Shown piece after piece: positions 40,116 through 64,000 of a stretch of 64,000 bases of DNA. A program made the position numbers and the translations under genes. Origin of the DNA: Promethearchaeota archaeon. GTDB lineage: Archaea > Asgardarchaeota > Lokiarchaeia > Sigyniarchaeales > SOKP01. The notes beneath the pieces were generated by a model. That model made no database searches. It was not told where the DNA came from and saw nothing but the letters and a program-made list of their open reading frames with translations. The DNA is taken from positions 27,218 through 91,217 of the forward strand of contig JAEOTP010000068.1 of the NCBI GenBank assembly GCA_016839765.1. The letters are read 5' to 3'. The stretch's first letter is position 1. Each line of letters starts with the position of its first letter.

Positions 40116-41516
40116 TTAAAATTGATTTTCATCGATTATTGGCATATCTGGAGAAGCTAATGCTTTCTTAATATCTTCTTTTGGTAATTCATAATCTTCT
40201 AACTTACCGCTCATGAATTCTTTGTATGCTAATAAATCAAAAAATCCATGACCACTGAAATTGAATACGATTACCTTTTTCTCATTATTCTCTTTTGCTT
40301 TTAAGGCTTGATTTATTGCTTCTTTTACCGCATGAGCAGTTTCTGGTGCGGGTAAGATTCCTTCTGTTTGAGCGAATTTAAGACCTGCTTCAATAATTTC
40401 TGTTTGGTGAAGCATTGAAGTTGAAATGATATTGTTGTTAGATAAAATTGAAATAATAGGCGCCATTCCATGATATCTTAATCCTCCCGCATGTATTGGA
40501 CTAGGAATAAATGTATGCCCCAGAGTATACATTTTTAATATTGGTGCTTTTTTTGCAGTATCTCCAAAATCCCATCTATATTCTCCTTTGCAAACGCTTG
40601 GGCAAGCTCTTGGTTCTACCCCTATTATTTCTAAATCTGGACATTTCCCCTGTAATTTATCTTTTACGAATGGAATTGCAAATCCTCCAAAATTCGAACC
40701 ACCACCCATACAACCTATGAGAATATCTGGCTCTAATCCGATTTTTTTTAGTTGTACTTTAGTCTCTTGGCCGATTATAGTTTGATGTAAAAGTACAAAA
40801 TTTACCACACTTCCTAGTGAATAGCGTATTTTATCACTCCTTAGACTATGTTCAACTGCTTCAGATATTGCAATGCCTAAGCTTCCAGGATGATCTGGAT
40901 TAATGTCATAAAATGTTCTTCCGGCATCGGTATGTTTTGAGGGACTTGCATGAATTGCTGCATTATATGCTCTCATTAATATCTTTCTACCAGGCTTTTG
41001 GATAAAGCTCGCTCTTACCATGTAAACAGTACATTTTAATCCATATATATTACATCCATAAGAGAGCGCTGAACCCCATTGTCCTGCTCCGGTTTCAGTG
41101 ACAAGCTCCTCAATTCCTTGTATTCCCGCATAATAAGCTTGAGCTAGAGCCGTATTAGGCTTATGGGATCCTGTAGGAGAAACTGATTCATTTTTAAAGA
41201 AGATTTTTATTCTACCATCATTTATACCAAGCATTTTTTCTAAACGGACTGCTCTGTGAAGAGGTGTTGGACGATATGTTGTAGCATAGATTTCTCTTAG
41301 CTCCTTTGGGATACTAATCGTATTATCTTGAGATACCTCTTGTAACACGCATTCTTTAGGAAAGATCGCAAAAGCTAATTCTGGAGGTGCCGGTTTTCCG
41401 TCCATAGGATTAATTAAAGGCGTTATAGGTGATGGTAAATCTGGAAGAATGTTTATCCATTCTTTAGGAACTTCGTTTGGATCTAATAAAACTCTTGCAT
41501 TAAAATTTTCTAACAT
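40116..41516 (-). CDS. trpB2: TrpB2 PLP enzyme (copy A)
   Basis: PTGSHKPN, TETGAGQWG, GGGSN, HAGGLRYHG, SGHG. Confidence 0.97.
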   Translation of the reverse strand: MLENFNARVLLDPNEVPKEWINILPDLPSPITPLINPMDGKPAPPELAFAIFPKECVLQEVSQDNTISIPKELREIYATTYRPTPLHRAVRLEKMLGINDGRIKIFFKNESVSPTGSHKPNTALAQAYYAGIQGIEELVTETGAGQWGSALSYGCNIYGLKCTVYMVRASFIQKPGRKILMRAYNAAIHASPSKHTDAGRTFYDINPDHPGSLGIAISEAVEHSLRSDKIRYSLGSVVNFVLLHQTIIGQETKVQLKKIGLEPDILIGCMGGGSNFGGFAIPFVKDKLQGKCPDLEIIGVEPRACPSVCKGEYRWDFGDTAKKAPILKMYTLGHTFIPSPIHAGGLRYHGMAPIISILSNNNIISTSMLHQTEIIEAGLKFAQTEGILPAPETAHAVKEAINQALKAKENNEKKVIVFNFSGHGFFDLLAYKEFMSGKLEDYELPKEDIKKALASPDMPIIDENQF

Positions 41517-41559
41517 TTAAATCACCGTTTTACATTTTTAGTTAAAAATGCTACATCTT

Positions 41560-41587
41560 TATATTGGAATTCAATATAATTGACGCA
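41560..41587 (-). promoter_or_regulatory. Conserved 28-nt element in the trpB2 leader (copy A)
   Basis: TGCGTCAATTATATTGAATTCCAATATA; 23/28 identical to 56252-56279. Confidence 0.6.
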
Positions 41588-48506: not shown

Positions 48507-48611
48507 CGGACCCGGCAGGATTCGAACCTGCGACTTTCGGATTAGAAGTCCGACGCCCTATCCATACTAGGCAAGCTAGGCTGGCTAGCTGGCTGGCTAG
48601 GCTATAGGTCC
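48507..48611 (-). tRNA. tRNA-Arg(TCT) with 30-nt D-loop intron (48565-48594)
   Basis: Anticodon arm TCGGA-CTTCTAA-TCCGA; T arm GCAGG-TTCGAAT-CCTGC; BHB splicing gives the typical GCCTAGCCTGGATAGGGC D arm. Confidence 0.92.
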
Positions 48612-48866
48612 TTGCTTTATAAAATAAAGATTTTATATTTTATAAAATATCCTTTATGATGTTTAAAGTTTATTATGACTTGTTGTTGCTCTTCTCTTAT
48701 TAAGAAATTAAAAAATAATTTTCTATTTCTGAAAATAGACTCATTAATTTCTTGATGAATTAATAAATTATTAATACATTTTATTTAATAAAATACAACA
48801 TTAAATTATAATTAAGACATATATTGAATATATAAACGTGATTTGGTAATATAAAAGAGAGTATTA

Positions 48867-49592
48867 ATGGAGCTTAAACAAAAACATTTTGTACATCAAA
48901 ACATACCCTATTCTTTCAATTGGAATAAGATTCATCATAAACAAAAATTTTATCAAATAATTGCTAATCGAGAAGAATTAAATAGACTTAAAGCACATTT
49001 TAAAAGAGTAGCTGAAGGGAAAATTCCGAATAGGTTATTTAATTCTCGAGATCTTCCAAGAGTTTCTCAATTTAAAATTAGAGGTATTAAGCCAGCTTTT
49101 ATTAGAAGTTTTAGTAAAAGTTTAATTCGTTCAGGGAAAATAAAGCGTTTTGATTCCAATTCAAAATTATCCTTGTATGCTCAGAGAGTATTTGAAAGTT
49201 ATAAAGAAAGTGGATTCAGAGGAGACCCTGGACATGAACCAATTTTAAAAAACATTTTAATTAAAGATAAGGACTCTGTAGCAATAGAAGTTCCGATTTG
49301 GAAGGAAGAAGAAAACAAAACCATTACAGGGCATATTGATTTGATTCAAATTGAAAATAATGCTGTTAAAGTAATTGATTACAAACCAGAAGGAAAATTT
49401 TTACTCTCTTTACCCCAAGTAGCAATGTACGGTATTTTATTTAAATCGAGATTAAATATTAAGACGGTAAAATGCGTTTCTTTCAATAAAGAAGAAGTTT
49501 GGGAATATGATCCAAAAACGTTATTGTCTGAAGTTAAAGAATATTTAATTTCTCATCATATTAATGAAAGGCCATGGGAAGATTTCATATAA
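48867..49592 (+). CDS. PD-(D/E)XK nuclease (copy B)
   Basis: ITGHIDLIQI, IDYKPEG, QVAMY. Confidence 0.85.
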   Translation: MELKQKHFVHQNIPYSFNWNKIHHKQKFYQIIANREELNRLKAHFKRVAEGKIPNRLFNSRDLPRVSQFKIRGIKPAFIRSFSKSLIRSGKIKRFDSNSKLSLYAQRVFESYKESGFRGDPGHEPILKNILIKDKDSVAIEVPIWKEEENKTITGHIDLIQIENNAVKVIDYKPEGKFLLSLPQVAMYGILFKSRLNIKTVKCVSFNKEEVWEYDPKTLLSEVKEYLISHHINERPWEDFI

Positions 49593-49603
49593 AGGGAATC
49601 TAT

Positions 49604-49879
49604 CTAGAGCTTCTTTCCTTTTGGTTTTGAGGGTTCAGGTTCTTCCCTAGGTTTCACATACCCTTTAAACATGAAATAACATAAAAGTAAGGCTACTAAT
49701 TCTGTAGCAACACCAAGAAAAGAAATAATTGTACCATTATATCCCAGATATCTCAATACTAATGCAAAACCTAAACCTGAAAATGCTAAAATAAATAAAA
49801 TAAATCCTTTTATGATTTCTAGGAAGGAATCTTTAATATATCCAAGTTCTTTCTTAATCCAAGTAAAAATTGAAGCCAT
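49604..49879 (-). CDS. Small 2-TM protein (copy B)
   Basis: Homolog of 42332-42601. Confidence 0.85.
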   Translation of the reverse strand: MASIFTWIKKELGYIKDSFLEIIKGFILFILAFSGLGFALVLRYLGYNGTIISFLGVATELVALLLCYFMFKGYVKPREEPEPSKPKGKKL

Positions 49880-50034
49880 AAGATGATTCTACTTCTATAT
49901 AATTTTAAATAAATTAAATAAATATCATTTTAATATCTTTGTTATTTTCTAAAGATTTATCTAAATATTCAAATCAGAAATGATTATGATTAAACTATAC
50001 TTATCGATATTAACCTAAAGTTTTTGAGATAGTC

Positions 50035-52227
50035 TTAGCTCCTTTGTTTACTTTTAAATTTAGAATATAATGCCTTATCTAACAATTTGCCTATTCTTTG
50101 GGCAATTTGTTTACCAATTTCATATCTTTCACCATCAAGTAAATTTCTCATTGCTTCTGGGGTAGGATTGTTCCCTAATCTTCTAAACAAAACTTTTTCT
50201 GTTATTTCATTTACCATATCTTTAATTTTTCCATAATCAGGTAAATTAATATTGGGATTAAAGCTTTTGATTTTCTCTATTGCAAATTGAAAAAATTGAC
50301 TAAATAACTCGATTGGATCACCTTTTAATTCACTATGAAGTTTAATATTATCAGTAGCTATTTTTGTATCTTTTTCTTGCCAATACAACTGATTTGGATT
50401 GATACCTGGACTATTTATTCTCATAAGTGAACTTGTAATTCGGCGTTCAATCCAATTTAATGTACTAACTTCCTGTTTTTCACGTATTTCCTTCTTTTTT
50501 TCTATTTTTTCTTTTTCTTTAGATTCTATAATTTGTTCTACTTTCGATTTACGTTGTTCTTCAAGGTCTTCAAACCTTTTAATTATATCATATCCTATAC
50601 AGTAAGAAATTGGTGAGATTAGATCTGATTTTAACTTTAATGACGATATCCCGGTATATACGTGACTATTCTTCTCTTTTAATTCTAAAATTCCCTCTTT
50701 TAAAGGAATACCCATCAATCGTGCCAATATAAAACCATTAATTAAAAATGGTTGATTATCCGCATTAAATACTATAACTAACTCTTCTTGTCTCTTATTT
50801 AATTTTTCTATTATTAATTCCTCTAACTTAACCCTAACCCATTCTTCAGAATCAGTAGTTCCAAATATTTTTCTTAAAGCTAAAAGAAATAATGTTTTAT
50901 CATTTGAAATTTTAAGATATAGCTCAATAATCCGACTAAGTTGTCTTAGTATTTTTGATAACATATAAAAAAATATGTCTTTCACTAATTTGTCCATGAT
51001 ATCTTCAAAATCTAACACAAATAAGATATGAGCATAATTTTTTAATCCTAATTCTTTTAAAAAGACCTTCTCAATAACTTGCTTTTTTCTTAGATCATTT
51101 GGATCTATAAGATCATGTTTTGTTATATTATATCTGACCATATTTCTCCTTACTTCTTCAGTAATGGACTCGTCTATATCCATGAGATATAAGATATTGT
51201 AGACTCCATATCTATTTAACATAAAGATTAAATCATTGAAACTACATTCATTTAGGCTCTGTAGAAAATAAATGAAATCATTTGGATTAATTTTCAGTTG
51301 TTTAAATAACTCAGATTTTAAGAAGCTCAAAATATTTTGTTCAAATTGGTCATAATTAATTTTTTCTTTTAGAGCATTTTCTATTCTCTTTAACAGTTCT
51401 TTTTTAAGGTTGTTTGTTTCTTTAAAGATTTTTAGTCCGGGAATGGAAATTGGGAACCGATCAAAGTTATAATCAAAAATTCTTCGTTTTATCATTCTAA
51501 CTGGCATTGCCTGTACCTGCAATTCCTTATATGATTTGAATTCGAAGTCTTTTCGGATTTTGTCAATCATTCGACTTAAGGTTGCTAATTCGATAAACTT
51601 ATCTTCTTTCTCTTCTCGTTCTAATTTTTTTTCAATTTCTAGTGATAAATCTTTAAAAGCAGAACTTTCCTCTAGGATTTGTAATTTAGTTTCGTCAGTT
51701 AATCCTATCAAATCGCCGATTAAATCATAAAAATAAAAAGGTGGGTAATTTAATATAATTTCTAATAATTCTTGTTCAACTTTTTGTTCAATTTCATTCA
51801 ATATTTGCTTCTTTTGAAACTCTGGAAGTGTAGATTCTCTTTCTTCAATTAGATATGATATAAATCTATTCTCTAAATCAAATATCTTATTAAGAACCCC
51901 AATTTCTAATATGAATGAATCTTTTAATAATGTATCAACTTCTTCTATTAAAATCTTTTTTTCAATGTGCTCTAAATTTTTAGTTGACTCAAAGGAAAAT
52001 TTATCTTGCTCTAAGGTTTCTTTAACTCTAATACCTAAGCTGTGATAAATATGAATTACAGCTGTAGCAATTAAAAGATCTTTGAAAGTGGTTTTTTGAC
52101 TTGTTAATTCAAATATTTTTTGCTTATCTGCATCTCTCTTAAAATGGGAAATAATTAAATCTACAGTTTGAAAAAATCTAAATGTACTTTCAACCGCGGT
52201 TGTCTTTCTTTTTATCCCACTAATCAT
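50035..52227 (-). CDS. 730-aa helical protein (copy B of the 799-aa protein)
   Basis: MISGIKRKTTA start; ATGA overlap conserved. Confidence 0.9.
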   Translation of the reverse strand: MISGIKRKTTAVESTFRFFQTVDLIISHFKRDADKQKIFELTSQKTTFKDLLIATAVIHIYHSLGIRVKETLEQDKFSFESTKNLEHIEKKILIEEVDTLLKDSFILEIGVLNKIFDLENRFISYLIEERESTLPEFQKKQILNEIEQKVEQELLEIILNYPPFYFYDLIGDLIGLTDETKLQILEESSAFKDLSLEIEKKLEREEKEDKFIELATLSRMIDKIRKDFEFKSYKELQVQAMPVRMIKRRIFDYNFDRFPISIPGLKIFKETNNLKKELLKRIENALKEKINYDQFEQNILSFLKSELFKQLKINPNDFIYFLQSLNECSFNDLIFMLNRYGVYNILYLMDIDESITEEVRRNMVRYNITKHDLIDPNDLRKKQVIEKVFLKELGLKNYAHILFVLDFEDIMDKLVKDIFFYMLSKILRQLSRIIELYLKISNDKTLFLLALRKIFGTTDSEEWVRVKLEELIIEKLNKRQEELVIVFNADNQPFLINGFILARLMGIPLKEGILELKEKNSHVYTGISSLKLKSDLISPISYCIGYDIIKRFEDLEEQRKSKVEQIIESKEKEKIEKKKEIREKQEVSTLNWIERRITSSLMRINSPGINPNQLYWQEKDTKIATDNIKLHSELKGDPIELFSQFFQFAIEKIKSFNPNINLPDYGKIKDMVNEITEKVLFRRLGNNPTPEAMRNLLDGERYEIGKQIAQRIGKLLDKALYSKFKSKQRS

Positions 52228-54530
52228 AGTTCCTTTAACCACTCCCTATAAACTTCTTTAAAATTATCTGCTAATTCAAATCTAGAATTAGTATGCCAAA
52301 ACTTAAAGCTTAATACATGAAAAAGATCTCCCCCAAACAATTCTTTCTCTTCGCTTGTTAAATTGTGTTTTAAAATTAGAGTTAATGGTCTAGGGATCAA
52401 TTTTGAAAAATATTTTAACTCCAACTCTTTAATATAATCATAAAAGTGGTCCTCACCACTTATATTAAAAAAGTTGATAGGAACTTGCTCTTCAAATTGA
52501 GGACTAAGTATACTTACTTCTTGTTTAATTTTATTACTAACATACTTCGGAAATTCAGTACTAATATTTATGCTTAAATCATATTGCTTATAAAAATCAA
52601 TTAATAACTTCTTTTCCTCAATATTTGATATACGCGCTATATACGTATCTAAAAATTTTAAAAAATGCTCAAGCTTTTGCTCATTTGATTCTCTTTCTTC
52701 AAAATAGCTAATAAAATCATTATATATCTCATTCAAAGTCCAATCTTTTCTTTCTTCTACGTTAAAGAATTTTTTGGTATAATCATTTATCCATTCTAAA
52801 ATATAAGATTTCCAGGTTAGATTAATTCCTCCAATTCGTTTTTCTAAAAACCGATGAAATCTAGTGGCAAATGTAACTGGATCGGCTATCTCTTTATCAG
52901 GTTCCTCTTTTATATACCTATTAATTGTTGTATATCTAAGAATATAGCTTAATAGATAAGATAACTCACTCGAAAAAGTCTTAAATTTCTCTATATGCTC
53001 TTTTATAATATTAATATCTTTATCCATTTGTATTTCCGCAAAAGATACTAAATCTCCCATATCTAGTTTTATGTTGTTGAAAAATGGTTCAATATTTGTA
53101 TTAATTAATCTTCTAAACTCTTTTATTATAATTTCTTCATTAAATTTAAGAAACTCCGATAAAACCATTGGATTATCTTCAATTTGGTTAAAAATATGAT
53201 CTTTAAACTTTTCTATCAATTTGTGACCAAGGGTTTTCGCTGGTTTTTGTTCGCTTTCGAATTTTTGCTTTAAATTTTTTGTTAAATCAATAATTAAGGA
53301 TTTTAACCTCCTACGTGAAAGATATTTTGGAAGAGATACCTTTACCAAATTAAGACTACTTTTAATAATTTCTGAAAAATAATTAAAAATAGAGCTTAAA
53401 TCTATCGCTCTTAAGTTTGTTTTTGTAATTGCTGATTGATCAATTGATTTAATTGCTAAATTACAAATACCTTCAAAATCTTCATTTTCAAATTTAGCTT
53501 TATTTACAATAAAGTGCTTATATTTTTTTAATAATTCAGGTAAATCTCCAATTTCTCCAGTTGTAAGAAAAGAGTTAGAATATTCAATGAATTTATTTAG
53601 GTATCTTTCTAAATCGATTAAAATTCTATTAATAAAGGAAATTAACGATTTTGCTGTGCAAGGATCTTTTAAGTTATGTGTTTTTTGCTTAATATAGTTA
53701 ATAATAAACGAGACTACTCTATCTTGAGATTCATCAATTGTACCTGTATTTGCTAAATTAATTAAATTTGCTCCTAACTTTAATGTTTTATCCACAATAA
53801 AATTAGCACTAGGCTCTGATATAGAATATTTTATATGTTCTATGGATTGTTGCCCCTCAAAAGGGCTTATCAATCTCTCGAAAGTTGAATTGAAAAGGTT
53901 AATCTCATATGGTCGCTTGTGTAATAATATATCTACATCTGATTTGACTCTTGCATAAGTATTTAACATTTCTTTTTCTGTTGGAAGCGAAGCACTTACA
54001 CCAATTAACTTTTTATTCCATTTATCTTCAATTAATTCTCCAAAGAGTTTTTTGCTAAATCTAGTAGCAAATCTCTTATATACTTGTAGTTTATCTTCAC
54101 TTTTTAATTCAGGTCGATCTGTAAATTCTTCTACTTCAAAAAATAACCTACTTATATTGTTTATAGCTTCACGGGATTTATGGGCATCCAAATATCCTGT
54201 TTCAGGTTTTAATGCAAGCAATAAACTCTCACAGTCTTTATATTTGCCGGGTACGAAAATCATTGATTTTGGGAAAATATTTACTCGAGCACTTTTTTCA
54301 TCGAGGTTATATAACTCAAATTCGATACTAAAGACTTCTGAACCAGTATAATCTCTTAAAATTGCATTATACATCCTTAAATATTCTATTACACCTTGTG
54401 AAAGTTCATTCACTCTTTCTCTAGTTAATTTTCCAGGACCAATTACATCTCCAACAATGAGATCATTTGGAGAAGAATAACCAAATATAAGTGAAAATTG
54501 ATAATTAATTGATTCTCGTGTAGTTATCAT
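52224..54530 (-). CDS. 768-aa helical protein (copy B)
   Basis: Same length and near-identical termini as 45072-47378. Confidence 0.9.
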   Translation of the reverse strand: MITTRESINYQFSLIFGYSSPNDLIVGDVIGPGKLTRERVNELSQGVIEYLRMYNAILRDYTGSEVFSIEFELYNLDEKSARVNIFPKSMIFVPGKYKDCESLLLALKPETGYLDAHKSREAINNISRLFFEVEEFTDRPELKSEDKLQVYKRFATRFSKKLFGELIEDKWNKKLIGVSASLPTEKEMLNTYARVKSDVDILLHKRPYEINLFNSTFERLISPFEGQQSIEHIKYSISEPSANFIVDKTLKLGANLINLANTGTIDESQDRVVSFIINYIKQKTHNLKDPCTAKSLISFINRILIDLERYLNKFIEYSNSFLTTGEIGDLPELLKKYKHFIVNKAKFENEDFEGICNLAIKSIDQSAITKTNLRAIDLSSIFNYFSEIIKSSLNLVKVSLPKYLSRRRLKSLIIDLTKNLKQKFESEQKPAKTLGHKLIEKFKDHIFNQIEDNPMVLSEFLKFNEEIIIKEFRRLINTNIEPFFNNIKLDMGDLVSFAEIQMDKDINIIKEHIEKFKTFSSELSYLLSYILRYTTINRYIKEEPDKEIADPVTFATRFHRFLEKRIGGINLTWKSYILEWINDYTKKFFNVEERKDWTLNEIYNDFISYFEERESNEQKLEHFLKFLDTYIARISNIEEKKLLIDFYKQYDLSINISTEFPKYVSNKIKQEVSILSPQFEEQVPINFFNISGEDHFYDYIKELELKYFSKLIPRPLTLILKHNLTSEEKELFGGDLFHVLSFKFWHTNSRFELADNFKEVYREWLKEL

Positions 54531-54733
54531 GACTCAAAATAAATAAAAATCTTATTTCTTTAATCATTAAATCATAACTATTATAATTCTTACTGAAATT
54601 GCGAAAAAATTTAGGAATTATTTTTAATATTTTTAAGTTTATATAATATTAAAATTTACTTTTGAATAGTAAATAAATTAATTTCATAAAAATTTATATT
54701 TAAAATTCTAATATAGTAGATAGATGGAAAAAA

Positions 54734-55405
54734 TTGTCGGAGATCCTTCTTAATCAACTCATAGAGAAATTGGACGAGGTACTCTTAGGAAGAAGAGATA
54801 TTATATCTGAGATTGAAAAACTAAAGGATGCAATAGAAAAGATTCAGAGTGAGAAAAAAGACAATACAGGAATTCAAATCACGAATACTGTAAATGAAAT
54901 AAAAGTTTTTATGTCAAAGTCCACCAATGTTTTATCTGAACTTAATAATAATATGAGAAATTTACAAAATTTAATAATTTCCCTCAATAATGTTTTTGAT
55001 ACAATTTTAAGTACAATAAATATCCCCGAATCGTTTACGGCTAGTGAAATTTCAACAAAACCTCAAAAAATTGGAACTTCAACTAGATATGAAAACAATT
55101 TATCTGCTCCTATAAGATCTCCAAGTGAATCAATATCACCAAGTGCTCCTGAAAAATCATTAGATATTTTAGGAGATTCAGACTTTAAGTTAATTATTTC
55201 TATAGCTAAATCCAATAATCCGGCAGTTGAAATAGCGATAATGCTTGAAAAAATAAGAGCAAAATTAGAAAACGAGAATCCCTTAAACCCTATCTTGTTT
55301 GAATTAAGCATGGAATCAAGGCGACTAAAATCTTTAGGAAATATACCACTTGACGCATATAATCTGCAAATTCTAATAGAGAAATTACAAAAATGGATTG
55401 GATAG
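54734..55405 (+). CDS. Coiled-coil protein with S/P-rich linker, right arm only
   Basis: 223-aa ORF with heptad N-terminal half. Confidence 0.7.
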   Translation: MSEILLNQLIEKLDEVLLGRRDIISEIEKLKDAIEKIQSEKKDNTGIQITNTVNEIKVFMSKSTNVLSELNNNMRNLQNLIISLNNVFDTILSTINIPESFTASEISTKPQKIGTSTRYENNLSAPIRSPSESISPSAPEKSLDILGDSDFKLIISIAKSNNPAVEIAIMLEKIRAKLENENPLNPILFELSMESRRLKSLGNIPLDAYNLQILIEKLQKWIG

Positions 55406-55537
55406 CAATTGAAAATTATGGAATTTTATTTGAATTAAATTTTATCTTAACGAAAATAAATAAATAAATGGATTTTAATTAATTTAATATAAGTATAATC
55501 TAAAATTTTATATAAATTATCTAAAAGGTGTAGGCTT

Positions 55538-55942
55538 ATACAATTTGGATCTGATTTAGGTATTAACCATGAAGATATAGAAAAAATAAGTCCGCAAATC
55601 ACATTTATAACATCTAATGCAGATATAGAAGCAATTGCACTTGTAAGCGTAGAGGGTTATCAAATAGCTTTCTCTGCTTTGCCCCAGTACCAAGTAGATG
55701 GTGATCAATTTTGTGGACTTGCTAGTGCTTTATTAATGACTGGAAGATCAACAATTCAAACATTATTTCAAGAAGATATAACTGAAATAATTGTAAGGGC
55801 TGAGAATGGATATATAGTTGTTACAAATGCAGGACGCTTAGTTATTGTATGTGCTGGGACAATTATTGATACTCTAATGAAAACGGTGAAAGTTATGCGA
55901 ATAGCAGCAAAGAATCTCTATAAAATTTTCGAAGGACGCTAA
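55538..55942 (+). CDS. Roadblock/LC7 domain protein (copy B), ATA start
   Basis: IQFGSDLG...; 120/134 identical to copy A; no ATG/GTG/TTG in frame between TAA 55496 and the conserved N-terminus. Confidence 0.88.
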   Translation: MQFGSDLGINHEDIEKISPQITFITSNADIEAIALVSVEGYQIAFSALPQYQVDGDQFCGLASALLMTGRSTIQTLFQEDITEIIVRAENGYIVVTNAGRLVIVCAGTIIDTLMKTVKVMRIAAKNLYKIFEGR

Positions 55943-56112
55943 ATTATAAATTTTTCTTATTTTAAATCTTCACAGTTCTGTGTATTTAGTTGGGCATGAA
56001 AGTATTTTATTGTCTTAATTTTATAGAAAGTACTTTTTAGATCAATTAACTTTTTATTTAATAATAAATAGTTAAATCAATAATTTTTATTATGATAATA
56101 TGGTTTAATTTT

Positions 56113-56163
56113 ATGGCAACTGGAAATTATTATTTTTGGCAGTGGCCTTGGTCTTGGTTGTAA
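56113..56163 (+). CDS. Trp-rich leader peptide MATGNYYFWQWPWSWL (alternative ATG at 56092)
   Basis: Hand translation; 4 TGG codons; stop 148 nt upstream of trpB2. Confidence 0.85.
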   Translation: MATGNYYFWQWPWSWL

Positions 56164-56251
56164 GACCCATTATATTGCCTTAAACCATACCTTACTTTCT
56201 CTCTTTTCTTAATTTTCGTTTTTCTAAATTATCGAATACTCTATTTAAATG

Positions 56252-56279
56252 TGCATTAATTATTTTGATTTCCAATTTA
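56252..56279 (+). promoter_or_regulatory. Conserved 28-nt element in the trpB2 leader (copy B)
   Basis: TGCATTAATTATTTTGATTTCCAATTTA matches copy A. Confidence 0.6.
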
Positions 56280-56311
56280 GTAATGAGACACAAAAAATAA
56301 GTTGATAAAAA

Positions 56312-57727
56312 ATGATAGTAAAGAAGGTAAAGTATTATAATTCAAGAATTATATTACAACCAAATGAAATACCAAAGCAATGGGTAAATATTTTACCAGA
56401 TTTACCCTCTCCCATGACGCCCTTAGTAAATCCTATGGATGGCAAACCCGCGCCACCAGAACTAGCATTAGCGATATTTCCAAAAGAATGCGTTATGCAA
56501 GAAATATCTCAAGAACCAACAATTCCTATCCCTAAGGATTTAAGGGAAATTTTCGCAAGAACTTATAGACCAAGTCCTCTACATCGCGCATTAGGATTAG
56601 AGAAAGAATTGGGAATAGAAGGTGATAATATAAAGATATTTTATAAAAATGAATCTGTTTCACCTACAGGTTCCCATAAACCAAATACAGCAATAACTCA
56701 AGCTTATTATGCAAAAAAGGATGGACTTGAAGAATTGGTCACGGAAACAGGAGCAGGACAATGGGGTTCAGGACTTTCTTATGGATGTAATTTGTTTGGA
56801 ATAAAATGTACTGTATATATGGTAAGAGTGAGTTTTTTACAAAAACCGGGAAGAAAAATTTTAATGAAGGCTTTTAATGCAGAAGTTCATCCAAGTCCTT
56901 CGAGATATACAGAATCAGGCAAAAAATTCTTAGAAAAAGATCCAGAACACCCCGGTAGTTTAGGAATAGCCATCTCTGAAGCATTAGAACATAGCTTAAG
57001 GAGTGATAAAATTAGATACTCTCTTGGAAGTGTTGTAAATTTTGTTCTTTTACATCAGACAATTGTAGGACAAGAAACTAAAATCCAACTAGCAAAAGTT
57101 GGTGTTGATAAACCTGATATAATAATAGGTTGTATGGGAGGTGGTTCTAACTTTGCTGGCTTTATGATCCCTTTTGCAAGAGATAAAATACATGGAGTTC
57201 TTCCAGATGTAGAAATTATTGGAGTTGAGCCACGAGCTTGTCCTAGTGTTTGTAAAGGTAAATATGGATGGGATTTTGGAGATACTTCTATGAAGGGTCC
57301 TATTATAAAAATGCATACTTTAGGTCATACATTTGTTCCAAGTCCTATTCATGCAGGGGGATTAAGATATCATGGGATGGCACCTATAGTTTCAATCTTA
57401 TATAATAATAGAGTTATATCTGCGTCTATGCATCATCAAACTGAAGTCATTAAATCCGGTCTTTTATTTGCAAGGGCTGAAGGAATACTTCCTGCCCCTG
57501 AAACAGCACATGCCGTAAAAGAAGCAATAGATCAAGCATTAAAAGCCAAAGACAATAAGGAAAAGAAAACAATCGTCTTTAACTTTAGTGGTCATGGCTT
57601 TTTTGATTTATTAGCTTATAAATTGTATATGACCGGTGATTTGGAAGATTATGAATTACCGACTGAAAAAATCCAAAAAGCATTATCATCAGAAGAAATG
57701 CCAAAAATTGATGAATCTCAATTTTAA
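56312..57727 (+). CDS. trpB2: TrpB2 PLP enzyme (copy B)
   Basis: Same motifs as copy A. Confidence 0.97.
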   Translation: MIVKKVKYYNSRIILQPNEIPKQWVNILPDLPSPMTPLVNPMDGKPAPPELALAIFPKECVMQEISQEPTIPIPKDLREIFARTYRPSPLHRALGLEKELGIEGDNIKIFYKNESVSPTGSHKPNTAITQAYYAKKDGLEELVTETGAGQWGSGLSYGCNLFGIKCTVYMVRVSFLQKPGRKILMKAFNAEVHPSPSRYTESGKKFLEKDPEHPGSLGIAISEALEHSLRSDKIRYSLGSVVNFVLLHQTIVGQETKIQLAKVGVDKPDIIIGCMGGGSNFAGFMIPFARDKIHGVLPDVEIIGVEPRACPSVCKGKYGWDFGDTSMKGPIIKMHTLGHTFVPSPIHAGGLRYHGMAPIVSILYNNRVISASMHHQTEVIKSGLLFARAEGILPAPETAHAVKEAIDQALKAKDNKEKKTIVFNFSGHGFFDLLAYKLYMTGDLEDYELPTEKIQKALSSEEMPKIDESQF

Positions 57728-57837
57728 ATAATAATTTTAAATAATTTTTTTTCCTAAATAATCTAATTTTACTTTTAAAGAAAATCTTAAAAATGAAAGA
57801 ATCCTTAAAATATTCAAATTTAAGAGATTGGTAATTT

Positions 57838-58833
57838 TTGAATGTCCTTTCCATAATAATTTTAAGCTTTTTCTATTTATACAGCCTAATTCTATTATAT
57901 ATAGCCTTTTTAGCAAAAAGCAAGGGAGAACGAGGAGCATTTATTAATAATTTGGTAAATGCTTTAGTTTTAATTATATCACTTACTATAAATTTGGGAA
58001 TTCATTTTTTTTTAAAAACTCCTTATAATGAATTTATTGTTTTTCCCTTTGATCTGTTGATGATAAGCTTTATTGGAATATTCTTTCCAATATTTTCGCT
58101 ATTTATTTTGCGAGAGAAAAAAAAAATTAAAAACCGGAAAGAGATAGATACCAAACACTTTAAACAATTACCTTTAAAATATGATATTTACAGAAAGTTA
58201 ACCCATTTAGTTGTTTTAGGAATAATTTTTTCGTATTTTACACTTGGGTTTAATATAAATGGAGATAAAATGTTTTTTTCTCAAAATTTAGTTATTTTCT
58301 TGGTAGGAATCTCTTTAATTGGATTATTAACAGCTGAATTTATTAGAATATTAAACCCTGAAATTTACCCTCTTAAACAGGTTAATCAAATATTACGAGA
58401 AAAGGAGTTGCATATGAGATTTGGGCCTCATATTTCTATGAGTATTGGATGTTTTTCAATAATTCTTTTATTTGGGTTAATTCAACCAATAGGTCCAGTA
58501 GTAATCTGCACCACTATGACAATGGCAATTTTTGGAGATATAGCATCAAATTTAATTGGTAGAATAATAGGAAAAACTATAATTCGCAATACAGATAAAA
58601 CGTATGAAGGTTTATTCGCGGGGATGGTAATATCATTTTCTTCGGGTATTATAATACTAATATTGTTGAGGAGCTTTTATGATCCAAGCATTTTAGGTTT
58701 TTTTTTAATTCCAATATTAGGTGCATTGATTATTGGGGGAATTGACTACTTAGATTTAGAAATTGATGATAATTTAACCTTTAATTTTATTTTATCAACA
58801 ATTTTATTTTTTATTTCATTTTTTGTTTTATAA
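57838..58833 (+). CDS. CTP-dependent polyprenol/DAG kinase family (copy B)
   Basis: RKLTHL, FGD, KTYEG, DDNL. Confidence 0.85.
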   Translation: MNVLSIIILSFFYLYSLILLYIAFLAKSKGERGAFINNLVNALVLIISLTINLGIHFFLKTPYNEFIVFPFDLLMISFIGIFFPIFSLFILREKKKIKNRKEIDTKHFKQLPLKYDIYRKLTHLVVLGIIFSYFTLGFNINGDKMFFSQNLVIFLVGISLIGLLTAEFIRILNPEIYPLKQVNQILREKELHMRFGPHISMSIGCFSIILLFGLIQPIGPVVICTTMTMAIFGDIASNLIGRIIGKTIIRNTDKTYEGLFAGMVISFSSGIIILILLRSFYDPSILGFFLIPILGALIIGGIDYLDLEIDDNLTFNFILSTILFFISFFVL

Positions 58834-58891
58834 GAGAAATTTAAGTTAATAAGAATTTACCATAAGTTTTTCAATAAGAATATTTTAATTA

Positions 58892-59401
58892 ATGAAAATG
58901 TTAGAAGAAAAATTAAAAATTGACAAAATCTCTAAAGGAACGGTAATTGATCATATTGATGCTGGTTATGCTCTAACCATACTTAATCTTACTGGATTAG
59001 ATGAATCTAAGAATTTAATGACTATAGGTGTTAATGTTTCTTCTAAAAAATACCAAACAAAAGATATTATTAAAATTGAAAATGTATTTCTAAACGAAAC
59101 TCAAATGCAACAAATTTCAATTCTCTCACCCAATGCAACTATTTCATTAATAGAAAATTATAAGGTAATTGAGAAGAAAAAAGTTAAAATTCCAAAAACA
59201 ATTAAAAAATTGATTATGTGTGTTAATCAAACATGTATTTCCAATTCAGGTGAGCCAATTGATACAGAATTTTACGTTTTAGAAGAAAAACCTTTAAAAA
59301 TTCAGTGTATATATTGTGAGCGAATATACAAACTCGAAGAAATTGTATTTACTTCTAAAGAAAAGAAAGAAAAGCAGGTAAAGCAAAGGATTCAATTGTA
59401 A
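58892..59401 (+). CDS. pyrI: Aspartate carbamoyltransferase regulatory chain (copy B)
   Basis: About 85% identical to copy A by hand count. Confidence 0.97.
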   Translation: MKMLEEKLKIDKISKGTVIDHIDAGYALTILNLTGLDESKNLMTIGVNVSSKKYQTKDIIKIENVFLNETQMQQISILSPNATISLIENYKVIEKKKVKIPKTIKKLIMCVNQTCISNSGEPIDTEFYVLEEKPLKIQCIYCERIYKLEEIVFTSKEKKEKQVKQRIQL

Positions 59402-59418
59402 TAAATCCTTAAATCCAC

Positions 59419-59859
59419 CTATAAAAATAATTCAAGGATTGATGAAAAATCAGGAATAAACTTAAGTGTTGTATGAATAACTACCCCAACTATCATAAAT
59501 AAAAAGAAAAATATGCCTATTCCAGGCATTAAAATATTTTTCCAAGTCCATTCTTCCTTATCGTATTTAAATTTTAATATAATGAAGCTAACAATAAAAG
59601 GAAATAAAAGCCACCAAAATAGCATCCAAAAAAATAAAAACCATCCTATGAATCCAAATAATAATCTTCCTATTAATGCACTTAAAGCACCTGTTGCTGC
59701 TCTTATCCAATATAATTTTGTTTCCTTTTCAAGTCGAAGATCAAAAGGTTTTGTAGTTGTTTTCTTTGGAATAACATCTTGTTTAGGTAATTCTTTCCTC
59801 TTCTCTTTTATTAATTTCTTCCTTCTCTTTCTAATATCGACTTTTTTATGTTTAGCCAT
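59419..59859 (-). CDS. EMC6-like 3-TM protein (copy B)
   Basis: DLRLEKETKLYWIRA; start set by alignment with copy A. Confidence 0.6.
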   Translation of the reverse strand: MAKHKKVDIRKRRKKLIKEKRKELPKQDVIPKKTTTKPFDLRLEKETKLYWIRAATGALSALIGRLLFGFIGWFLFFWMLFWWLLFPFIVSFIILKFKYDKEEWTWKNILMPGIGIFFFLFMIVGVVIHTTLKFIPDFSSILELFL

Positions 59860-59929
59860 GTTATTAATATAAATAATTATTATTATAAAAATCATTATAT
59901 ATAATGATAAACAAAAGTACAGACAGAAA

Positions 59930-61993
59930 ATGATTAGAACCGTAAAGAAATTTTCCAATTTTGATGTATATGCTATTGTTAAAGAATTAGATTTAATTTT
60001 ATCAAATAGTTCGATTTCTAATGTTTATGAAGTTGAAGAATTATTGGTACTAAAAATAAATACCTCACAAGGGAAAAAAAATTTAATTGTTAAAGAAGAT
60101 TCTCGGATTAATTTAACTGAATATGATTATCCAGTTCCTAAATATCCAAGTCAATATATTATGTCTTTAAGAAAATTCTTAAAAAATAAACGAATTCTAA
60201 GAGTTTCTCAATACAATTTTGATAGGATAGTAATTATTGAGTTAAGCAATGGCGAAGCAGAACCTTGGAAGTTTATTATTGAACTGTTTAATAAAGGTAA
60301 TTTTTTGTTGTTAAATGAGAATAATATTGTTAAAATTGCTAAAAAATATAAAAGATTTAAGGATCGTAATGTTTTAGCTAACAAAGAATATATTTTTCCA
60401 AAATCACGAGGGATTGATTTTTTAAATATAAATAAAGATAATTTTAAAGAATTATTGAAATTAGATACAGACGTGGAAGTAGTAAGATATTTAGCAAGAA
60501 ATGTAAACATTGCCGGTTTTTATAGCGAAGAAATATGTTATAGAGCAGAAGTAGATAAAAAATTAGTTGGTGCGGATTTGTCTGAGGATGATGTAGAAAA
60601 ATTATATAACTCTTTTAAAAAATTAAGAAATGAATTACTCTTTGGGAAGATCGACGGTAAAATTATTTATGATAATAATGGTAATGAGATTTTTGTTCTT
60701 CCTTTCGAATTAAAATTGTTTAAAGATTATAAACAAAAAAAATTCGAATCTTTTAACAATGCCGTCGATGAATTTTTCTCAAAATTAGATTCAGAAAAAT
60801 TAATCATTCCCAAAGATCAAAAAATTTTAGACCAAATCAAATCTCAAAAAAAAATCTTAAAGAATCAACAAGAATATCTAGAAGAACTTAAAATTAAAAA
60901 GAAAAAATATTATACGTACGGAGATTACATTTATTCTAATTTTAGTACGTTAGATAAGTTATTTGCAATAATCCTAAATGCAAAAATAAAAAGATATGAT
61001 TGGGAAAAAATTAATGATGAGTTACAAAAAGCTAAAATGAAGAGTTTAGAAGATATCGATATTTTCGAGAAGTTAATACCCTCAACTAAGCAAGTGCTCA
61101 TTAAAATTAATAGTGATGAAGTTTATTTAGATTTAAAAAAAAGCATTGGTGAAAATGCTAATTTAATTTACTCTAAAGGAAAAAAAGCTGATAAAAAGAT
61201 AAAAGGTACTATAATAGCTATTGAAAAAACTAAAGCAAGTATTGAAAACTTAAAACTTGAGAAAGAATCTATGGAAGCTGAAGTTGATTTCTTAATAAAA
61301 AAACCAAAAAAGAAATGGTATGAAAAATTCAGATGGTTCTTCTCATCAGATGGATTTCTAGTAATTGGAGGAAGAGATGCCTCATCCAATGAAATTCTAT
61401 TTAAGAAATATATGGATTCAAATGATCTAATATTTCATACAAATTTTCCTGGATCTCCATTAACTGTTATTAAAAATCCTGAAAATAAGGAAATTCCTGA
61501 AATAACTATTAATGAAGCAGCGAACTTTGTAGCAAGCTATTCACGTGCATGGAAAGAAAATTGGGGTATGGCTGATGTTTTCTATGTGAACCCATCACAA
61601 GTTTCAAAAAGTCCACCTTCAGGTGAATTTTTAGCAAAAGGTTCTTTTATTATTTCAGGTAAAAAGAAATTTATTAAGAACGCAAAAACAGAGCTAGCAA
61701 TTGGATTAAATATTATAGACATCAGTCCTAATATAGAAGATAAGGGTGGAATTCTTTATCCTAAATTGATCTGCGGACCTCTATCAGCAATTCATATACA
61801 AACAAATTATTATGCATTAATAATACCATCAAAATCAGAAGGCTTAACCAAAGGAAAATTAGCTCAAAAAATAAAATCCTACTTTATTAACCATGTTGAT
61901 AACAAACTAAAAAAATGGATAAAATTATTGACAGTTGATGAAATATTACTTTGTTTACCAAGTGGACTCTCAACAATTAAATCAAGATCTTAA
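59930..61993 (+). CDS. rqcH: RqcH/NEMF (NFACT) (copy B)
   Basis: Same motifs; 687 aa like copy A. Confidence 0.95.
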   Translation: MIRTVKKFSNFDVYAIVKELDLILSNSSISNVYEVEELLVLKINTSQGKKNLIVKEDSRINLTEYDYPVPKYPSQYIMSLRKFLKNKRILRVSQYNFDRIVIIELSNGEAEPWKFIIELFNKGNFLLLNENNIVKIAKKYKRFKDRNVLANKEYIFPKSRGIDFLNINKDNFKELLKLDTDVEVVRYLARNVNIAGFYSEEICYRAEVDKKLVGADLSEDDVEKLYNSFKKLRNELLFGKIDGKIIYDNNGNEIFVLPFELKLFKDYKQKKFESFNNAVDEFFSKLDSEKLIIPKDQKILDQIKSQKKILKNQQEYLEELKIKKKKYYTYGDYIYSNFSTLDKLFAIILNAKIKRYDWEKINDELQKAKMKSLEDIDIFEKLIPSTKQVLIKINSDEVYLDLKKSIGENANLIYSKGKKADKKIKGTIIAIEKTKASIENLKLEKESMEAEVDFLIKKPKKKWYEKFRWFFSSDGFLVIGGRDASSNEILFKKYMDSNDLIFHTNFPGSPLTVIKNPENKEIPEITINEAANFVASYSRAWKENWGMADVFYVNPSQVSKSPPSGEFLAKGSFIISGKKKFIKNAKTELAIGLNIIDISPNIEDKGGILYPKLICGPLSAIHIQTNYYALIIPSKSEGLTKGKLAQKIKSYFINHVDNKLKKWIKLLTVDEILLCLPSGLSTIKSRS

Positions 61994-62734
61994 TTTTGAT
62001 TTAATCCACTGTTTTATTTTAGGAATGTTTTTGTAGTTATCAAATAAAATGCCATCAATCCCTATATTAATCAAGGATTTAATGAGTTTTATAGGATTTT
62101 CACTTACAATAAAATCCCAGGATAATGGTAAAATTTCATTCTTATGACAGATATCAATAAACTTAGATGAAACCAGGCTTGATCTTAAACTAATTATATC
62201 TGGCTTGAAAATTAACTTTTTTTGTGCGCCTTGCTTTAAGAAATCATCTAACTTGAACTCTTGTGCTTTAGTAATATTATAACATATTCTACATTTGGGT
62301 AATTTAGCTTTCATTAGTTTTAAGATATGAATATCCCGCCCACTGATAATTGATTCTTCTATTAAATCATTTTCTTTAATTGTTTTTGTTATTTCATCAT
62401 GTAAATGTTCTTCTTTTAATTCAATCATGAATTGTATTCTTCTTTTTAGCAGTTTTAAAACTTCAGACAATAATGGAATTTGTTCTTGACATTTTTTTGT
62501 TTTTATAGTCTTAAGTTCATCATAGTTATGGTTATCTAATCGTCCTGTTCCATATGTCATTCTATCTAACGTGGAATCATGCATAATAATTAATTGTCCA
62601 TCTTTTGTTTTCCGCACATCCAATTCAATATAATTTGCACCGTATTCTATTGCTTTCTCAAAGGCATTTATTGTATTTTCATCAAAATCGGTTCTTGTTC
62701 CTCTATGCCCGATATATAAGAATTCAGATTTCAT
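61982..62734 (-). CDS. Glycerophosphodiester phosphodiesterase (copy B)
   Basis: GHRG, ENT, IELDV, HD, IELK. Confidence 0.92.
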   Translation of the reverse strand: MKSEFLYIGHRGTRTDFDENTINAFEKAIEYGANYIELDVRKTKDGQLIIMHDSTLDRMTYGTGRLDNHNYDELKTIKTKKCQEQIPLLSEVLKLLKRRIQFMIELKEEHLHDEITKTIKENDLIEESIISGRDIHILKLMKAKLPKCRICYNITKAQEFKLDDFLKQGAQKKLIFKPDIISLRSSLVSSKFIDICHKNEILPLSWDFIVSENPIKLIKSLINIGIDGILFDNYKNIPKIKQWIKSKLRS

Positions 62735-62758
62735 TATTTTAAGAATATCTTAAATCTT

Positions 62759-63175
62759 TTAAATCTCTTGGATTAAATACAAATAAATTAAGATTATTAT
62801 AATTCCTAAAACAGTAAATGTAAAAACCCAGAGATTTAGAATAGACTGGCCCAAAGATAAAACTATGAGAAATAGAAATTCTTTCCAACTTATAGGTTTC
62901 CCAACAATTTCTTTATAATTTCCTATACTAACCATCATAAAGAAGAAAAATAATAAAATAACACTAGTTTTAATCAATAAATCTATTATGTCAAATAATA
63001 CATTTTTATCCATAAAAACAGTAATGATCTCAATATTAAAGAAAATAGATATAATTAAAAATATACCTCCAAAAATAACAGAAATAATTACGGATCTATA
63101 GGCAAATTTCTCGTTAAAAGCTTGTTTGGCTTTAAAATTTGTCTTTTTATTTGGGGATTTAGAAATTTTTGACAT
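62759..63175 (-). CDS. Small 4-TM protein (copy B)
   Basis: Homolog of 34616-35029. Confidence 0.85.
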   Translation of the reverse strand: MSKISKSPNKKTNFKAKQAFNEKFAYRSVIISVIFGGIFLIISIFFNIEIITVFMDKNVLFDIIDLLIKTSVILLFFFFMMVSIGNYKEIVGKPISWKEFLFLIVLSLGQSILNLWVFTFTVLGIIIILIYLYLIQEI

Positions 63176-63176
63176 T

Positions 63177-63977
63177 TTATCGGCGATACCTTTCCATAAT
63201 TTCCTTTAGTTTTATAATTCTATAAATATAAAATCCATATAATACTACAGCAAGACTGAAAATTACTATAGTAAAAACAAAAATTGTTAGTTTTAAAAGA
63301 GGTAATTCACTTTCGGGAGGGTGGTTTATATTAATTAAAAAAATACTGCTTTTCATAATTCCTTGAGGATAACTGGGAGTAAGTCCATATGTTATATTAA
63401 AAGCGAAAGGTTCACCATATTCCAAATAAACATCTTCATCAATATCTCCTTGAAGATTATTTATTGGAATAGAAAATTCATAAGTAGAAGTTTCACCTTC
63501 CAATTTTGCAGCTCCATTGCCATTTGATGCAGAATCTGGAATAAAAACACTGTTATTTATAAAATAATCAAAATAGTCGAACTCATCTTCAGTTATATTA
63601 GAAAATTGAACAATTTTCGCATCTATAAAATCTTTTATATCTTCAGAAGAACTATTTGAAATTAAAATCCCTACAAATTCACTCGTTCTATTTACCACTA
63701 TAGATTCCAATTCAATTTTAACTGCAATATATAGATTTGAACTGCTTTGCATTACCCATAAATTAATTGGTAAATCAGTTAAGTTTGTCTGAATTTTATA
63801 TGCTTCATCCCATTCGTTGGCAAATGAATCAATCTGCCCATCAATAGTAGGAGTTTTGCCAAAGTTAGGATCGATTTCTTCCAAAGCACCATGACAAGGT
63901 ATTGTGAAAAGTACTGAAATGAAAAATATGTTAATAATAAACATAGATAATAAAATTTTAAGAATTAGTTTCCTCAA
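63177..63977 (-). CDS. DOMON/CBM9-like surface protein (copy B)
   Basis: TPTIDGQID..NEW, DFIDAKIV, FYIYRI.KLKE. Confidence 0.75.
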   Translation of the reverse strand: MRKLILKILLSMFIINIFFISVLFTIPCHGALEEIDPNFGKTPTIDGQIDSFANEWDEAYKIQTNLTDLPINLWVMQSSSNLYIAVKIELESIVVNRTSEFVGILISNSSSEDIKDFIDAKIVQFSNITEDEFDYFDYFINNSVFIPDSASNGNGAAKLEGETSTYEFSIPINNLQGDIDEDVYLEYGEPFAFNITYGLTPSYPQGIMKSSIFLININHPPESELPLLKLTIFVFTIVIFSLAVVLYGFYIYRIIKLKEIMERYRR

Positions 63978-64000
63978 GATATTATTGCCACGTAATTATA

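Follow-up and report, generated by a model that had tools for sequence, protein, structure and literature searches.

Results

Two Trp-rich leaders precede two trpB2 genes

The window (the whole stretch of 64,000 nucleotides of Promethearchaeota DNA that was analyzed) contains a 15-kb mirror, in which the region at 34.5–48.3 kb (arm A) is matched by that at 48.9–64 kb (arm B) with 68–76% nucleotide and 43–85% protein identity. Each arm carries a trpB2 gene, at 56312–57727 on the + strand in arm B (471 aa) and at 40116–41516 on the − strand in arm A (466 aa); the two are 76% identical, and both exceed the TrpB2 cut-offs (TIGR01415 and PRK12391; 583 and 633 bits vs 519 and 366). Assignment rested on these HMM cut-offs together with genome comparison for arm B and comparison of the arms for arm A. 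Upstream of the arm B gene, a leader ORF of 16 codons runs on the + strand from the ATG at 56113 to a TAA at 56161–56163, with Trp at codons 9, 11, 13 and 15, and ends 148 nt from trpB2. Its arm A counterpart (41727–41674, − strand), recognized by ORF reading and an RNA-model scan, is of the type found in the host's own genus, comprises 17 codons and lies 157 nt from its gene. The coordinates, Trp positions and spacings had been given correctly in the original prediction, as had the features common to both arms, namely the MAT start, Phe at position 8 and Trp at positions 9, 11, 13 and 15; WQWPW is offset by two codons between the two peptides.

The view that four in-frame TGG codons are unlikely to recur by chance held when all 3.3 Mb of the genome were considered: of 68,929 short intergenic stop-to-stop segments, no more than 13 contain at least three Trp within the final 14 codons, and the arm A and arm B leaders are the sole ones to combine an ATG with WxWxWxW. 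The pyrimidine tract said to be kept between the copies is present in arm B at 56191–56210 (+ strand), and arm A on the − strand retains its composition, not its sequence. A TATA-like box at 56051–56058 (+ strand), which corresponds to a near-invariant T-run in the alignment and lies ~50–62 nt 5′ of the uORF ATG in relatives, is the putative leader promoter. An in-frame ATG at 56092 would add seven codons to the leader, including a TGG at 56101 that had been counted as a fifth Trp. Both arms also carry a Roadblock/LC7 gene (55538–55942, + strand; 42236–41832, − strand) that is 90% identical between them from an Ile codon on; for the arm B gene no ORF of at least 100 aa beginning with ATG, GTG or TTG is listed, which is consistent with a non-AUG start.

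Arm B probably originates from another genus

Arm B had been described as a second, diverged copy, a description that comparison with other genomes does not sustain. The arm B TrpB2 is 91–93% identical to those of four genus-g12 genomes and at most 78% identical to those of the host's own genus, g1; likewise, the leader plus gene start is nearest to g12 in arm B (95%) and to g1 in arm A (98%). To the left of 48572 the window matches a g1 genome at 99% identity, and to the right of 48504 it matches a g12 genome at 97%; the g1-like and g12-like parts overlap in an identical 50-nt core of tRNA-Arg(TCT). In g1 this tRNA gene points the same way as its neighbouring gene, whereas in g12 the two are divergent, and a join running through it would yield exactly such a mirror. 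At the mirror axis (48508–48611, − strand), genome comparison shows a hybrid tRNA-Arg(TCT), with a g12 5′ half, a g1 3′ half and a mismatched acceptor stem, which marks the probable misjoin. The g12-type 5′ half carries a ~30-nt insertion in the D arm that is also present in G061 and G087 and is probably a non-canonical intron. Read depth differs between the arms, being mostly ~60–70 vs 40–55 in run X1 and ~11 vs 1–8 in runs X5 and X7. Among the contig pieces listed for the public runs, none spans the hinge; these runs were covered as contigs, and X1 may be the source sample. From these sequence matches, we consider it very probable that the contig is a chimeric assembly joining two genera at tRNA-Arg.

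The alternative, that arm B is a real 15-kb block acquired horizontally or duplicated anciently at the tRNA-Arg, leaving two regulated trpB2 genes, appears improbable. The block lies on a single contig without Ns, and tRNA genes are common integration sites. The true g1 flank was not found elsewhere in this metagenome-assembled genome (MAG; G000), in which the search found the true flank of neither tRNA allele. In another MAG, G143, this hybrid tRNA recurs at a contig end, over an overhang of 96 bp, and may reflect an identical artefact or a genuine event. However, trpB2 is single-copy in all 35 of the other g1 genomes that gave a match, the switch of best match falls exactly within the identical tRNA core and leaves the acceptor stem mismatched, the opposite tRNA direction in the two genera by itself yields a mirror, and the differing depths and the unbridged hinge also speak against one continuous molecule. 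Moreover, the supposed insertion is ordinary syntenic chromosome (pyrI, rqcH) that reaches the contig end, and the copies are neither both nearest to the host lineage nor found together in relatives, as segmental duplicates would be.

Where tested, positions 48612–64000 are 93–97% identical to genus-g12 genomes. The arm pairs of rqcH, pyrI, roadblock and the 768/735-aa genes are ortholog pairs, the two large ones having the reverse orientation to that in arm A. The mirror is therefore best treated as misassembled, and the genes that look duplicated within it as pairs of orthologs from two different genera. Because the arms represent orthologs and not paralogs, comparing them is a valid ortholog comparison and provides evidence of selection.

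The reading frame of the leader is conserved among relatives

DNA 5′ of trpB2 was retrieved from ~100 loci of the class Promethearchaeia, and in most genomes of the family Trp-rich short ORFs stop ~125–170 nt 5′ of the gene. When the densest TGG cluster was used as a frame-blind anchor (85 clusters), one frame held 320 of the 336 TGG codons, an open in-frame ATG was present in 74 clusters vs 2 and 1 in the other two frames, and 75 clusters had a stop no more than five codons away (TAA 41, TAG 26, TGA 8) vs 3 and 8; these counts come from related genomes, some of them near-duplicate loci, and thus are non-independent and describe a pattern without a P-value. The pattern is seen in all 13 genera of the family, and TTG or GTG substitutes for the start codon in several leaders lacking an ATG. 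Selection on the Trp leader frame, as originally proposed, is thus upheld by the start, stop and frame being locked in the orthologs; across the relatives, TGG repeats were not found to be conserved out of frame or without a start and stop. Like leaders of the trpL type, this is a short, Trp-enriched leader ORF with a conserved start, frame and stop.

The upstream extension is not conserved in this manner. Among 55 leaders, an ATG lies at −7 codons (as at 56092) in 4 and an in-frame stop lies within 10 codons upstream of the start in 25, and the position of the fifth Trp is TGG in 16 leaders and an in-frame TGA in 7. This site belongs to the 5′ arm of helix P1 (see below). The fifth Trp and the ATG at 56092 were ruled out as part of the sensor, and the aligned leaders indicate that the extension as a whole (56092–56112, + strand) is probably not a sensor part.

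Residues between the Trp codons vary among leaders (WHWHW, WFWFW, WAWRW, WQMPW and WHGLW), whereas the codons after Trp are synonymously frozen, with CAG used 59 times vs 4 for CAA (40:228 in genes), CCT 41 times vs 2 for CCA, and CGT 50 times. Such frozen synonymous sites imply an RNA constraint in addition to Trp-codon sensing. As far as sequence comparison can establish function, the ORF is very likely a translated leader that senses Trp.

The leader is predicted to fold into a conserved RNA structure

The RNA structure of the leader was missed in the original prediction. The copy B leader folds as P1, P2 and P3 with the stop codon at the tip (z −2.3). In the MFE fold, P1 pairs 56099–56108 with 56180–56189 (+ strand) and encloses the whole uORF, and the P2/P3 hairpin (56138–56179, + strand; P3 at 56150–56167), which is supported by covariation, has the Trp codons on its 5′ strand and the stop at the loop/3′ strand; the predicted leader thus contains a 1:2-like hairpin overlapping the control codons and stop. 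The P3 pairing GGCGU/ACGCC of arm A is replaced by GGUCU/AGACC in arm B. P1, whose 3′ arm is supported by the alignment as well as by the fold, shows changes on both sides at 7 of 7 pairs but is weaker (67% of cells paired) and is absent from some subgroups. Across 61 sequences, the combined P1+P2+P3 structure, which was chosen by the analyst and hence is favoured over its controls, was 79.7% paired with 51 double-change cells, a level reached by 0 of 500 shuffles, and slid controls gave 30–43%. RNAalifold, applied unaided to the raw alignment, recovered only three pairs, the core of P3, and an Rfam scan yielded no leader family, RF00513 included, with tRNA as the sole match at gathering thresholds. 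A further helix, P0, between the start-codon region and CAGUGGCC, was 72.5% paired, which shuffles equalled in 51 and 15 of 500 cases; if formed as modelled, it could explain the conserved MAT.

Directly 3′ of P1 lies a U/C-rich tract (56190–56225, + strand) with a U fraction of 0.5–0.65 vs ~0.35–0.42 in the flanks (49 leaders), which from its composition is a candidate archaeal terminator or aCPSF1 site. Just 5′ of trpB2, a second conserved hairpin, P4, was identified by covariation in arm B (56250–56292, + strand) and by alignment with the closest relatives in arm A (41549–41587, − strand). It has a 3-nt bulge and an apex, UUG-N4-CCAA, that is invariant, and is 85% paired with 16 double-change cells, reached by 0 of 500 shuffles. 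P4 is kept in g11 genomes from which the uORF has been deleted (L008, L011 and L013) and travels with the leader to some trp operons. It is possibly a protein-binding or stability element; a DNA palindrome is also possible, but covariation of the stem favours RNA. P4 as a second uORF was rejected, its ATG often being ACG.

A conserved antiterminator pairing segment 2 with downstream RNA was not found among 49 leaders (mean z −0.42; 4 of 49 below −2; no common partner site). Segment 2 can pair with the 3′ side of P4 in copy A and its close kin (z −2.5 to −4.4) but not in copy B (z 0.04). Pairing of CAUUGG (segment X) with CCAAU of P4 was also rejected, its modelled probability being ~0 in every ribosome state and matching changes being lacking. 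Modelled ribosome footprints left the predicted pairing of both the U-tract and the trpB2 start region unaltered (0.59–0.60 for the latter). Nor was a separate GC-rich 3:4 terminator hairpin with a U-run found in the leader, where the U-tract follows the AU-rich P1 and A-rich sequence follows P4.

The leader is linked to tryptophan genes throughout the family

A covariance model of the leader matched 106 of 151 Promethearchaeia genomes and 105 of 126 genomes of the family, in all 13 genera and nearly always once per genome; outside the family, model R1 gave no match among the 151 class genomes scanned. Most matches adjoin the 5′ side of trpB2. The eleven located elsewhere were inspected individually: seven lie 5′ of trpD, trpA or trpE, genes named here by length and N-terminal likeness to one Pfam-assigned operon, and the other four comprise a match at a contig end, a remnant without trpB2, a Phe-rich variant beside unrelated genes and a borderline match without a leader. 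The unit thus lies 5′ of cognate biosynthetic genes (trpB2, trpD, trpA and trpE), with the putative TATA-like box upstream. Eleven genomes lack the leader at trpB2; nine of these have trpA, a gene that exceeds its cut-off in just 28 of the 135 family genomes, and eight of the nine have a Trp leader before the trp operon. These genomes represent no more than three lineages, and both leaders are retained in several genomes.

Variants of the arrangement were also observed. Leaders of a shorter W-[PA]-W-[HRQ] type, recognized by eye and not by the model, precede trpB2 in other families of the class; in the complete 4,324,194-bp genome G021 (L158:1706), an ORF of ~30 codons ending in W-P-W-H-L-L lies ~230 nt 5′ of the gene. 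A second leader subfamily with the tail W-H-A-stop (L127, L135, L142–L145, L155 and L157) often has a downstream inverted repeat of 11–12 bp bracketing the U-tract. Some genomes have two leaders at a single trp operon, inside it or next to it, one 5′ of trpD and the other 5′ of trpA or trpE, and in some operons an ORF of ~90 aa without a Pfam match lies between leader and trpD (L134:641–913 and L144:8855–9136). At L137:170 and L138:5396, a Trp leader lies just 3′ of the trp operon, and the one in L138 precedes a GNAT/methyltransferase fusion gene, for which a Trp-linked function is possible. The Phe-rich variant (L154:2594, G028:C17) has the same fold with four Phe between two Trp and is followed by a 71-aa ORF, a CxxCxxCC protein and a beta-keto acid cleavage enzyme; this leader was possibly re-tuned to phenylalanine or aromatic catabolism. 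The remnant (L153:1–2500, G079:C96) is a degenerate leader from which trpB2 is missing, with CTP_transf/pyrI genes beyond, and G079 has an intact leader–trpB2 unit at another locus.

Discussion

We propose that the leader acts as a ribosome-read Trp sensor 5′ of trpB2, or of trpD, trpA or trpE where a trp operon exists. The comparison supports this proposal through the promoter-like box, the start codon, three to five in-frame Trp codons followed immediately by a stop, the P1/P2/P3 fold and the linkage to Trp genes. With ample Trp-tRNA, the ribosome would finish the ~16 codons and depart, allowing the P1-P2-P3 stem to close just 5′ of the U-rich tract, where transcription would terminate with the aid of aCPSF1/FttA. 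Under Trp shortage, the ribosome would stall on the Trp codons and hold the stem open and/or remain coupled to RNA polymerase, excluding aCPSF1, so that the polymerase would read through into trpB2. This polarity, on in starvation, is suggested because the same leader heads de novo biosynthetic operons. A Trp sensor combined with termination at the U-tract is, on balance, the explanation that we prefer for the whole, and we lean to a similar degree toward termination as the output, which we infer from the sequence features.

Archaeal terminators are U-tracts that do not need a hairpin and cooperate with aCPSF1, including its Lokiarchaeal ortholog (PMC8716108), and steric exclusion between FttA and the ribosome on the elongation complex has been put forward as a hypothesis (PMC11616081). 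More tentatively, and with doubt outweighing confidence, we suggest that in Asgard archaea the stalled ribosome directly gates termination at the U-tract through aCPSF1, with no antiterminator helix. aCPSF1 is present in four of five close relatives; in this MAG no full-length copy was found, the best match, of 436 aa, falling below the cut-off, and ARAGORN listed no tRNA-Trp. Both are probably unassembled in this 96%-complete genome, in which trpA, trpC and trpE were likewise not found. In this organism, TrpB2 would make Trp from scavenged indole; such indole salvage is its likely role because enzymes of the TrpB2 type show tight binding of indole and accept O-phosphoserine as a substrate (PMC11917138).

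The main rival to termination is translational or stability control, in which the same Trp-codon sensor would act by a stalled ribosome refolding the leader or P4, thereby raising trpB2 initiation or transcript survival. The lack of a GC-rich terminator hairpin and of a conserved antiterminator fits this possibility, as do the position of P4, a conserved hairpin 20–35 nt 5′ of the start codon, and the ability of segment 2 to pair with its 3′ side in copy A and close kin. A precedent is provided by the mycobacterial polycysteine sORF attenuators (bioRxiv 10.1101/834739), which resemble the Asgard leader in having runs of cognate codons and a stalled ribosome that blocks an RNA duplex; those sORFs, however, are leaderless and directly sequester the next SD, whereas the Asgard uORF has a ~30-nt leader and the next start is ~150 nt off. 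The modelled pairing at that distant start is constant over ribosome positions, copy B lacks the pairing with P4 seen in copy A, and P4 outlasts deletion of the uORF and hence may be independent of it. We regard this output as unlikely, although still conceivable.

Far less probable is nascent-peptide arrest of the TnaC or arginine-attenuator kind, in which WxWxW in the exit tunnel, together with free Trp, would stall the ribosome at the stop codon, and for which WQWPW had been suggested as the arrest sequence. The alternating WxW pattern is unusual among trpL-type leaders, and the W-[PA]-W-[HRQ] tail recurs 1–4 codons before the stop in other families of the class. Arrest is nevertheless unlikely because the spacer residues, as well as the peptide length, vary freely, with no invariant motif at a set distance from the stop, while the nucleotides stay fixed: CAG, CCT and CGT after Trp are explained by the hairpin and not by the peptide. 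In addition, TnaC polarity would have excess Trp inducing a biosynthetic operon. That the leader is a non-coding structured RNA or a TRAP-like, protein-binding UGGC repeat with the frame as a by-product is the least credible reading of all, since the strong nucleotide-level conservation of the 6-nt TGGC repeat is accompanied by an ATG locked in frame at variable multiples of three, three interchangeable stops and the TTG/GTG start substitutes.

The proposed Trp sensor with U-tract termination has partial counterparts in bacteria. In enterobacterial trpL, the 1:2 hairpin carries the Trp codons on its 5′ strand with the stop inside, and the Asgard leader is alike; it also shares with the trpL attenuator (Rfam RF00513) a short Trp-codon ORF before tryptophan genes and a U-rich tract downstream. 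Unlike trpL, the Asgard leader has an archaeal host with a TATA promoter, alternating instead of tandem Trp codons and no Rfam match; it has neither a GC-rich 3:4 terminator nor a conserved 2:3 antiterminator, P1 encloses the ORF and P4 is additional. Lacking these 2:3 and 3:4 elements, it is best classed as a variant of leader-peptide attenuation and not as a trpL member. In Escherichia coli tnaC and Salmonella mgtL, as in the Asgard leader, what follows the leader ORF is not a terminator hairpin but an unstructured, pyrimidine-rich tract, and in both cases a ribosome stalled on the ORF could keep a termination factor from acting; here, however, the factor would be aCPSF1/FttA and not Rho, no arrest motif is fixed, and the switch would be on in starvation and not in excess.

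Known archaeal trp control relies on DNA-binding proteins, the TrpY repressor of Methanothermobacter thermautotrophicus and the Tar/TK0271 activator of Thermococcus kodakarensis (PMC6737238). These are Trp-responsive like the Asgard leader but act at initiation. In a literature search of incomplete coverage, we found no report of a leader-peptide attenuator in Asgard or other archaea; Xie and Reeve reportedly described, in 2005, a Met-Trp dipeptide leader on trpY. If our interpretation is correct, the leader would be the first case of amino acid-sensing uORF attenuation in archaea, uniting a bacterial-type sensor with a eukaryote-related 3′-end machine, aCPSF1 being a homologue of CPSF73. It would also represent a regulatory use of transcription–translation coupling in the lineage closest to eukaryotes, and could then serve as a compact reporter for the shielding of RNA by ribosomes from aCPSF1/FttA.
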